In this document: positions 48,994 through 50,057 of the stretch, piece after piece
Layout: each line of letters opens with the position of its first letter
Numbering within the stretch: the stretch's first letter is position 1
Virus record (IMG/VR): IMGVR_UViG_3300032312_001422
Location: 192,001 to 256,000 of that record
Reading direction: 5' to 3' (one strand)
Source: a virus
Taxonomy: Duplodnaviria > Caudoviricetes
DNA: 64,000 nt
The notes under the pieces: generated by a model
Told to the model about the DNA's origin: nothing
What the model saw: only the letters and a program-made list of their open reading frames with translations
Databases searched by the model: none
Position numbers and translations under genes: made by a program

Positions 48994-49212
48994 TTAGAAG
49001 AATGGTAATCCCGATTCTTTAGTAGTTTCCATATTATCTTTAATTATCTCACCTATAAGCTGACGTTCTAGTTGGCTCAGCATAATAGCTTCCTCATAGG
49101 TTAAACCGCCACGCAAGTACCAGCAAAATCTAAGAGCTTCTTTCTTTACGGCTTTTGTCTCTTTGTCCAAAGTTTCTAAATATTGGACCACTTGCTCGTT
49201 GTTTAAAGTCAA
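48994..49212 (-). CDS. gp51-like / gpT-like small tail assembly protein; TTG start, or the -1 frameshift extension of the upstream gene
   Basis: FCWYLRGGLTYEEAIMLSQLERQLI; no ATG; the frame is open back to the slippery site at 49224-49230. Confidence 0.7.
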   Translation of the reverse strand: MTLNNEQVVQYLETLDKETKAVKKEALRFCWYLRGGLTYEEAIMLSQLERQLIGEIIKDNMETTKESGLPFF

Positions 49213-49217
49213 AAGCC

Positions 49218-50057
49218 TTAGGCGAAAAAATTAGCGTAATCAAACGTTAGTGGAACCTTGTACTCCTTCTCACAACTGGCACATTTAAAGTCTATGGGTT
49301 TGAGTTCAGCTTGTGCACCTAGTTCTTTGAGTCGGTCCTGTATCTTACGCATGACTTTAAAATCAGCTTCATCATAAAACTCTTTGATAAAAGCTGGGTC
49401 GGTTACCACAACACCTTCTTCTGTGGTAATACTTTCTGTGCTGTTGGCACAGATCTGTATGTTCAAATCAATCAGTTTGGCCAGGTACGCATCTGTGGTG
49501 GCTTTTTTCTCATCATCTGAAATGTTGTCATCGTTGACTGTGCGTAGGATCTGTTGCTCAGTAAAGCTGATTTGATTGGCATGATTTACTTCGTAATAGG
49601 TCTGTGGTTTGATTTTGATTTTTAAATTGTCAACATCAAGCAGGCTATTGTAGTCTGGGCATGCTAAACCCGCAGTTAGTGTACCCAAGTTCAAACCAAA
49701 ATCGCTTTCTTCTCGGCAATGTGGGCAAACAGTATTAAACTCCATTTCGTTGCCGTAGCTGGCAATTCTAATGTTTAGCAATAGTGCGTCAGAGTCCACG
49801 CTGGGCATTTTCCATGCATCTTTGATGTTGGGGCAACAACTGTGTATGACGTCAATTACGCCCTGACCGTTTAACAATGCGTCCGGAGTACGAATGGTAA
49901 TTTCGTCGCGAGCTGTCATTGGATACACAGGAATTTCCCCGGATGCGGGTAATTCTATAGTGCCTTGGGGCCAAAATCTCCCCTCACTAGGTAACTTCAT
50001 ATAAATTGCTGGCTGTCTAAAGTGTTTGGACAGCGGGTTTGCTGGTTTTTGATCCAT
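49218..50057 (-). CDS. Baseplate hub assembly / tail assembly chaperone (gp26-like); start revised to 50057 (MDQKPANPL)
   Basis: LPSEGRFW...PVYPMTARDEI...CPHC...C.SC...LTFDYANFF, with a GGGA RBS upstream. Confidence 0.75.
   Translation of the reverse strand: MDQKPANPLSKHFRQPAIYMKLPSEGRFWPQGTIELPASGEIPVYPMTARDEITIRTPDALLNGQGVIDVIHSCCPNIKDAWKMPSVDSDALLLNIRIASYGNEMEFNTVCPHCREESDFGLNLGTLTAGLACPDYNSLLDVDNLKIKIKPQTYYEVNHANQISFTEQQILRTVNDDNISDDEKKATTDAYLAKLIDLNIQICANSTESITTEEGVVVTDPAFIKEFYDEADFKVMRKIQDRLKELGAQAELKPIDFKCASCEKEYKVPLTFDYANFFA

Follow-up and report, generated by a model that had tools for sequence, protein, structure and literature searches.

The window analysed here, a stretch of 64,000 nucleotides taken from the IMG/VR virus record IMGVR_UViG_3300032312_001422, carries on its minus strand a single gene for a baseplate-hub assembly protein whose 3′ end has the features expected of a programmed −1 ribosomal frameshift, and it is this junction, together with the short and long proteins predicted from it, that we consider below. 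The 288.8-kb record is that of a jumbo T4-like phage; the window also encodes a T4-type portal, prohead protease and major head protein, gp5-, gp6- and gp25-like baseplate proteins, a gp55-like late sigma factor and gp46/47-like nucleases. The gene in question, ORF1 (50093..49218, minus strand, 291 codons), gives the gp26-like short form in the 0 frame and ends in GCT AAT TTT TTC GCC TAA. This end contains the heptamer T TTT TTC (U UUU UUC in RNA; 49230-49224), which the 0 frame splits as (AA)T TTT TTC, that is, in the X XXY YYZ phase of a slippery site. A 6-nt spacer, GCCTAA (49223-49218), separates the heptamer from the first stem of a predicted stimulatory RNA structure (49217-49150), and includes the 0-frame stop TAA (49220-49218). 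Read in the −1 frame from the heptamer, the sequence becomes TTT TTT CGC CTA AGG CTT TTG ACT, and 78 codons pass without a stop until a TAA at 48996-48994 (49230-48994 in all), while on the 5′ side another −1 frame stop, TAA at 49233-49231, directly abuts the heptamer. Inside this open frame a gene finder calls an ORF of 72 codons that starts at the TTG at 49212; the sole Shine-Dalgarno-like sequence available to it is an AAGG ending 3 nt before that TTG, and the first ATG in the frame comes 147 nt past the heptamer. An earlier description made from the letters alone (the sequence-only reading) had reported the junction sequence, the heptamer, its phase, the open −1 frame and the upstream −1 TAA, and had remarked that the small ORF has no ATG start and an ill-spaced AAGG; on re-reading all of these points were confirmed. 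A consensus scan for terminator-like sites finds none between the 0-frame stop and the extension.

From the ATG at 50093 ORF1 encodes a protein of 291 residues (32.9 kDa), and from the ATG at 50056, to which the start of most homologues corresponds, one of 279 residues (31.4 kDa). Residues 47-291 match positions 7-219 of the 219 in the Pfam model PF12322 (T4_baseplate; E 7.4e-22, 78.5 bits with a cut-off of 24.5), and the protein also matches phrog_150 (PHROG 150, baseplate hub; E 3.4e-25). Judged by these profiles ORF1 is a member of the gp26/gp51 family (PF12322), and it is the single PF12322 match in the entire record. It contains two CxxC pairs, CPHC at residue 123 and CASC at residue 271. 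For the 72-residue ORF and for the 78-residue extension Pfam and PHROGs return nothing. A blastn search with the locus gave no match among 50,697 phage records, so that its relatives are detectable at the protein level only.

We gathered relatives by searching viral contigs with ORF1, which gave 56 loci at 39-79% identity, and added three isolates; together these contain 34 distinct complete junctions, falling into 22 clusters at 60% identity and eight at 50%. A tblastn search with the small ORF likewise gave matches in three jumbo phages, Atu_ph07, Phosso and Xoo-sp13, in each case following a gp26-like gene. The in-phase heptamer is present in all 34 junctions (T TTT TTC throughout, with T TTT TTT in Xoo-sp13), down to 39% protein identity. 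Judging from the use of Phe and NAY codons elsewhere in the genes, an in-phase U UUU UUY would be expected in about 42% of the lineages in which N-F-F is retained, and 34 out of 34 is thus more than chance would give. In an alignment of 29 sequences with a mean column identity of 67%, the columns TTTTTTCG covering the heptamer region are invariant. The same in-phase heptamer, followed by an extension of 72-75 codons, is found in PA5oct, 121Q, RaK2 and CBB, cultured jumbo phages belonging to four distinct genera. The position of the 0-frame stop shifts among relatives, lying 10, 19, 25 or 37 nt downstream of where the heptamer starts, while the length of the −1 extension is fixed at 78-81 codons in all complete relatives. 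Aligning the junction across homologues was the check proposed in the sequence-only reading, and its outcome agrees with what had been anticipated, in that TTTTTTC and the −1 phase are kept at all homologous single-gene loci. Variable phase between the two ORFs, or ATG starts with good ribosome binding sites, had been named there as grounds for doubt; the phase turned out to be constant, and many homologues have no usable start codon.

The 78 codons of the extension open with the two Phe codons that are read again after the slip (FFRLRLLTLNNEQ...GLPFF), and the predicted long form consists of ORF1 residues 1-290 followed by 76 new residues, giving 366 residues (41.7 kDa) or, from the ATG at 50056, 354 residues (40.3 kDa). 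The consensus in relatives is FFRxRLLTL ... CWYMRGG ... ETTKKSGLPFF, with conservation running from the third residue, which is the first new one, onwards; F1, F2, R3, W37, R40, G41 and N66 are invariant in the alignment. Extension sequences are only 41-87% identical, yet they have a constant length, clear amino acid conservation and no stops. A profile built from the extension matched 453 proteins in 1.84 billion. Gene callers place the start of the small ORF at many differing positions.

Starting 6 nt past the heptamer, GGCUUUUG (49217-49210) can pair with CAAAAGCC (49157-49150) to form a closing stem, inside which are a 4-bp helix (49208-49205 with 49162-49159) and a 6-bp hairpin (49188-49183 with 49170-49165). 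The minimum free energy in the window is −18.6 kcal/mol (z −2.45), and 3 of 200 shuffled sequences fold as well. Over 29 sequences the stem positions are paired in 77.9% of cells, compared to 27-54% when the partner is slid along the alignment, and cells in which both sides have changed number 25, compared to 10.2 ± 2.3 in shuffled data; the covariation score is 0.247 against 0.136, and none of 500 shuffles reaches either value. Mapped on the ORF1 tree, the paired states switch at least six, four and two times at three of the stem pairs. Some of the compensatory changes also alter the protein: where CUU becomes CUC (Leu, synonymous), a codon 60 nt further on goes from AAA to AGA (Lys to Arg), and a change of AGG to AGC (Arg to Ser) is accompanied by GCC to GGG (Ala to Gly). 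When 92-nt segments from 34 homologues were folded separately, nearly all placed the 5′ arm at nt 5-7 and most paired it with nt 74-80, with a mean z of −2.95. On the strength of the pair counts and folds, a covarying, putatively stimulatory stem is present at 6 nt, within the spacing of 5-9 nt expected of such elements. Rfam contains no family matching the frameshift site. The sequence-only reading had pointed instead to a GCC-TAA-GGC mini-hairpin with the stop codon in its loop, but this is not a conserved structure and appears only in some folds. As a candidate stimulator the GCC-UAA-GGC mini-hairpin was rejected, since it gives way to the long-range stem in folds of 79-92 nt.

Several relatives encode the long form without any need of a frameshift. 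About 20 among the best 150 matches to the extension profile are proteins of 319-351 residues with the extension at the C-terminus, and all eight of those scanned have PF12322 ahead of it. They align without gaps over the predicted junction (DYANFF/RLRLL in the predicted product, DFSANF/RSRII in the in-frame proteins, with the stroke at the junction), a collinearity which argues that the predicted trans-frame protein has a natural architecture for the family. For one of these relatives (P0123, not a protein of the window) the predicted fold is a single unit (pLDDT 95, pTM 0.90) in which the extension forms helices at residues 263-338. Searched against BFVD, this model finds T4-like baseplate hub assembly proteins (E 4e-15, TM 0.67-0.80). 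Against the PDB, Foldseek returns nothing at E ≤ 0.001 and the best VIA-align hits, at Z 5.9, are small helical bundles, and there is no informative match in AlphaFold-DB Swiss-Prot.

The genomes with in-frame long genes differ from the window in a second respect. There are six such contigs (L067-L071 among them), and all six long genes examined have a short PF12322 paralogue (276-318 residues) directly upstream in tandem; the junctions of the five that were folded (L067-L071) show no RNA structure (z from +1.3 to −0.6). Like the window, these uncultured tandem-gene phages have the portal gene, a tape-measure-like gene and then the divergent PF12322 gene or genes, and the extension domain recurs in their long gene (E 1e-13 to 1e-25 with the extension profile), collinear with the predicted product; unlike the window, they have two genes, with the long form in one frame and without the structure at the junction. 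A similar picture emerges for T4, where two divergent PF12322 genes, the short gene 26 and gene 51 (the domain plus a tail of about 48 residues), are found with no slip signal. In T4 gp26 and in two of the tandem short genes the Phe pair is coded by the non-slippery TTC TTT. A single PF12322 gene, with heptamer, stem and −1 extension, is present in each of four genomes, those of Atu_ph07, Phosso, Xoo-sp13 and the phage of the window. The pattern of one gene with the signal as against two genes without it suggests that both forms are needed, and that frameshifting supplies them in the one-gene lineages.

We consider it highly probable, from this comparison of sequences, that a programmed −1 ribosomal frameshift at the 3′ end of the single PF12322 baseplate-hub assembly gene gives a short and a long predicted protein. 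Most ribosomes would read AAU UUU UUC GCC and stop at UAA, producing the short gp26-like protein of 291 or 279 residues. Some would pause at the stem 6 nt downstream and slip back by one base on U UUU UUC, where tRNA-Phe in both the P and the A site can re-pair one base back, and would then read CGC CUA AGG and onwards for 76 further codons to give a long form of 366 or 354 residues, whose helical C-terminal domain would give it the architecture of T4 gp51. We infer that the slip occurs on the ribosome, as we do its rate, and the two forms would presumably act as T4 gp26 and gp51 do. The sequence-only reading had likewise interpreted the locus as a frameshift fusing the gp26-like gene to the downstream ORF, a proposal that is supported by the conserved heptamer and phase, the covarying stem and the collinear in-frame long forms.

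Several observations speak against this interpretation. RNAalifold, run on the whole alignment of 29 sequences, predicts no consensus structure, and because of this the stem was named by eye and then tested by pair counts and controls. In seven divergent sequences this 5′ arm pairs instead with another 3′ partner that lies closer, and part of the conservation of the arm is at the protein level, as it doubles as coding sequence for the conserved R-L-L. Two of the tandem short genes end in an in-phase heptamer (T TTT TTC within L069 1680-1704, T TTT TTA within L071 2765-2789) with a −1 stop two codons further on, and such heptamers without an extension imply that the heptamer alone means little. 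These two sites fit the 42% chance expectation and illustrate what an unselected site looks like; they are either chance occurrences or what remains of an ancestral frameshift site following a duplication of the gene. The genome record is about 80% complete, and a second gene of the family could thus be missing from it. Lastly, the TTG or the ATGA overlap seen in the window and in about half of the relatives could permit some additional independent initiation or re-initiation.

This last point leads to the explanation that best competes with frameshifting, namely that there are two separate genes, the small ORF being translated from the TTG at 49212 with its AAGG or by termination-reinitiation, and the −1 phase being a by-product of the overlap between stop and start. 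In Atu_ph07, Phosso and a few contigs an ATG does overlap the ORF1 stop as ATGA, the ATG of the small ORF annotated in 121Q overlaps the TAA, the TTG of the window has an AAGG 3 nt upstream, and the annotation records examined have either separate genes or nothing at this position. Though these cases fit independent initiation, ten relatives (loci L011, L012, L015, L023, L024, L034, L039, L041, L043 and L044) do not, as the first ATG, GTG or TTG of their −1 ORF comes only 81-114 nt after the heptamer, or 27-38 codons in, and independent initiation cannot yield the conserved N-terminal third of the extension there. The codon corresponding to the TTG at 49212 is TTG in only 16 of the 34 sequences, and F-F-R-x-R, which lies ahead of it, is conserved and belongs to the translated sequence of the in-frame long forms. 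The −1 frame of Xoo-sp13 contains no stop in the 20 codons between the heptamer and the annotated ATG. Separate genes would also leave unexplained the invariant heptamer, the stem at 6 nt and the pattern of one gene against two, and we regard this explanation as improbable.

The long form could also be real and yet arise through slippage of the RNA polymerase on the T run, an extra base in some transcripts placing the extension in frame. Homopolymer runs can cause transcriptional slippage, which would account equally well for the conservation of the T run and of the −1 extension and for the relatives with an in-frame long form. Efficient transcriptional slippage usually needs runs longer than six, however, and here the run is of only six T, while neither the strict X XXY YYZ phase nor the covarying stem 6 nt downstream, both of them hallmarks of −1 slippage by ribosomes, would be needed, all of which makes this route quite unlikely in our view. 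That there is no recoding at all, the heptamer being a side effect of coding N-F-F when the genome is rich in A and T, with a decaying gp51-like remnant downstream, would suit the heptamers expected in about 42% of lineages and the two tandem short genes that have one without an extension, but is scarcely credible given conservation in 34 of 34 junctions, a stop-free and conserved extension of constant length with 453 relatives in the database, and compensatory changes in the stem.

Frameshifting of this kind has well-known precedents. In long-tailed phages −1 frameshifting in the tail assembly chaperone genes is a hallmark; Xu, Hendrix and Duda are said to have described its conservation in 2004 (Mol Cell 16:11, as cited in PMC9024508), and the E/E+E′ genes of P2 form a comparable −1 frameshifted pair. 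T4 and its relatives are usually treated as being without a tail-chaperone frameshift. Outside phages, dnaX of E. coli (tau/gamma), a case mentioned in PMC7412058, uses a slippery heptamer and a downstream stem-loop to make two protein forms at a set ratio, though the slip there truncates the protein whereas that in the window would extend it, and in the window no Shine-Dalgarno-like stimulator is evident upstream. As in lambda G/GT, a −1 slip would give a short product and a C-terminally extended one with a common N-terminus, here predicted from sequence signals and comparison, and the gene adjoins a tape-measure-like gene (50112..52505, plus strand, 797 residues). Unlike in lambda, ORF1 on the minus strand is divergent from the tape-measure-like gene on the plus strand rather than lying directly upstream of it in the same orientation, between the tail tube and tape measure genes, and its proteins, at 291 and 366 residues, are larger than lambda gpG and gpGT. 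ORF1 and the extension matched no tail assembly chaperone family, Pfam and PHROGs giving only baseplate hub families, and when the HK97 chaperone 2ob9 was compared with the P0123 model by VIA-align, the result (Z 4.2, rmsd 4.1 over 97 residues) was within noise. Of the G/GT or E/E′-type arrangement claimed in the sequence-only reading, the mechanism and layout thus stand by analogy; the adjacency to the tape-measure-like gene also stands, but with the two genes divergent and not with the tape measure co-oriented downstream as in lambda. By the same analogy the two forms may have a lambda G/GT-like function in handling the tape measure; chaperones of the G/GT type bind the tape measure protein, the long one also binds the tube protein, and the virion contains neither.

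In T4 the corresponding proteins are gp26 (208 residues) and gp51 (249 residues), both listed as hub assembly chaperones (Leiman et al. 2010, PMC3004832, Table 2). The same review describes gp51 as an essential protein of obscure function that the particle does not contain, and notes that it is disputed whether gp26 is part of the hub (PMC3004832); the absence of gp51 from the finished particle (PMC3004832) is a likeness to the lambda G/GT system. Like ORF1, both T4 proteins give full-length matches to PF12322, and the slip site in the window lines up with the F-F at the C-terminus of gp26. In gp51 the domain is followed by a tail of about 48 residues, compared to the 76 residues of the extension. 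T4 has two divergent genes, with gene 25 after gene 26, whereas in the window a single gene and a frameshift would give both forms. In T4 as in the window the gene stands back to back with a gene of the hub and tail-length module, though in T4 this neighbour is gene 51, with the tape measure gene 29 further along its strand, and in the window it is the tape-measure-like gene itself.

The extension resembles the gp51 tail only marginally. Aligned with the tail alone by hhalign, the extension gives E 3.4e-5 with a marginal probability of 72%, at the right position; aligned with the whole of gp51 it gives E 0.003 with a probability below 10%. HMMER scores it at only 2-5 bits, always at the tail, and BLASTP finds no meaningful match between the extension and T4 gp51. 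Neither PF28602, which precomputed annotations record on gp51 tails, nor any other Pfam family is recorded on 50 homologues of the small ORF. These comparisons point weakly to homology between the extension and the gp51 tail. The downstream ORF had been called gp51-like in the sequence-only reading, a name that is justified by architecture, PF12322 followed by a C-terminal tail, and for which the sequence likeness to the tail is marginal (about 70% by hhalign).

Possible, if rather doubtful, is the wider proposal that T4 gp26 and gp51 are the counterpart of lambda G/GT in the T4 lineage, with a short and a long form both required to load the tape measure into the hub. The two would be supplied in three ways, by a −1 frameshift in this phage, RaK2, 121Q, PA5oct, CBB and Atu_ph07, by tandem genes, and by divergent genes in T4. 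If this is true, the rule of a frameshifted chaperone pair beside the tape measure extends to the T4 superfamily, by way of a fold that is unrelated or has diverged beyond recognition.

We found no report in the literature of a frameshift in gp26/gp51, the matches retrieved being concerned with the ‘gp26’ of other phages or with the classical chaperone frameshift, and the frameshift is annotated in none of the phage records examined. At the position of the extension, 121Q and CBB have a separate small ‘hypothetical protein’, and PA5oct and RaK2 have nothing. The prediction would correct the annotation of these four jumbo phages (121Q, CBB, PA5oct, RaK2), and places a conserved putative frameshift with all three signal elements in the T4 superfamily, in a different protein family (PF12322). 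It also offers a simple explanation for why T4 keeps the paralogous hub genes 26 and 51, which would be the short and long forms that others make from one gene. The system is a testable one, since E. coli, Pseudomonas and Klebsiella, the hosts, are convenient laboratory organisms. In CBB the gp26-like protein (CBB_250, L075 1213-2070) is annotated as ‘structural protein’; if this label comes from virion mass spectrometry, the short or the long form would be in particles, unlike T4 gp51.

The assignment of the 797-residue neighbour as tape-measure-like comes from its language-model neighbours, which are tape measure clusters (score 0.93, to be taken as a lead only), and from synteny with RaK2, where the corresponding gene is annotated as similar to tail tape measure protein. 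The protein has no Pfam match at E ≤ 0.01 and no BLASTP likeness to T4 gp29. Structural neighbours with cell-wall hydrolase domains of the VanY or Peptidase_M15 type are found for approximately residues 613-734, which suggests a tape measure that incorporates a peptidoglycan hydrolase. It is followed by the portal gene (52539-54233; PF07230, E 1.3e-106). In one of the tandem-gene contigs (L067 1-2709, minus strand) the portal gene has 963 codons and matches to intein-splicing and HNH families (PF14890, PF13392), and looks like it contains a portal intein.

On the other side of ORF1 and its extension lies an ORF-free stretch rich in stems (48529-48993), followed by a GIY-YIG gene (48100-48528, plus strand). 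Just 3′ of the extension stop the consensus scan alone places a terminator-like hairpin (48985-48967, minus strand), which may instead be part of this stem-dense stretch. Two tandem radical SAM/SPASM-like genes (46233-48079, plus strand; 281 and 335 residues) are flanked by the gp46-like nuclease gene and the GIY-YIG gene, an unusual cargo for the structural and recombination region of a T4-like phage. Further away, a single ORF of 4194 codons (20257-32841, minus strand) adjoins the gp6-like baseplate wedge gene, and its product may be a giant fibre or a baseplate-associated protein.

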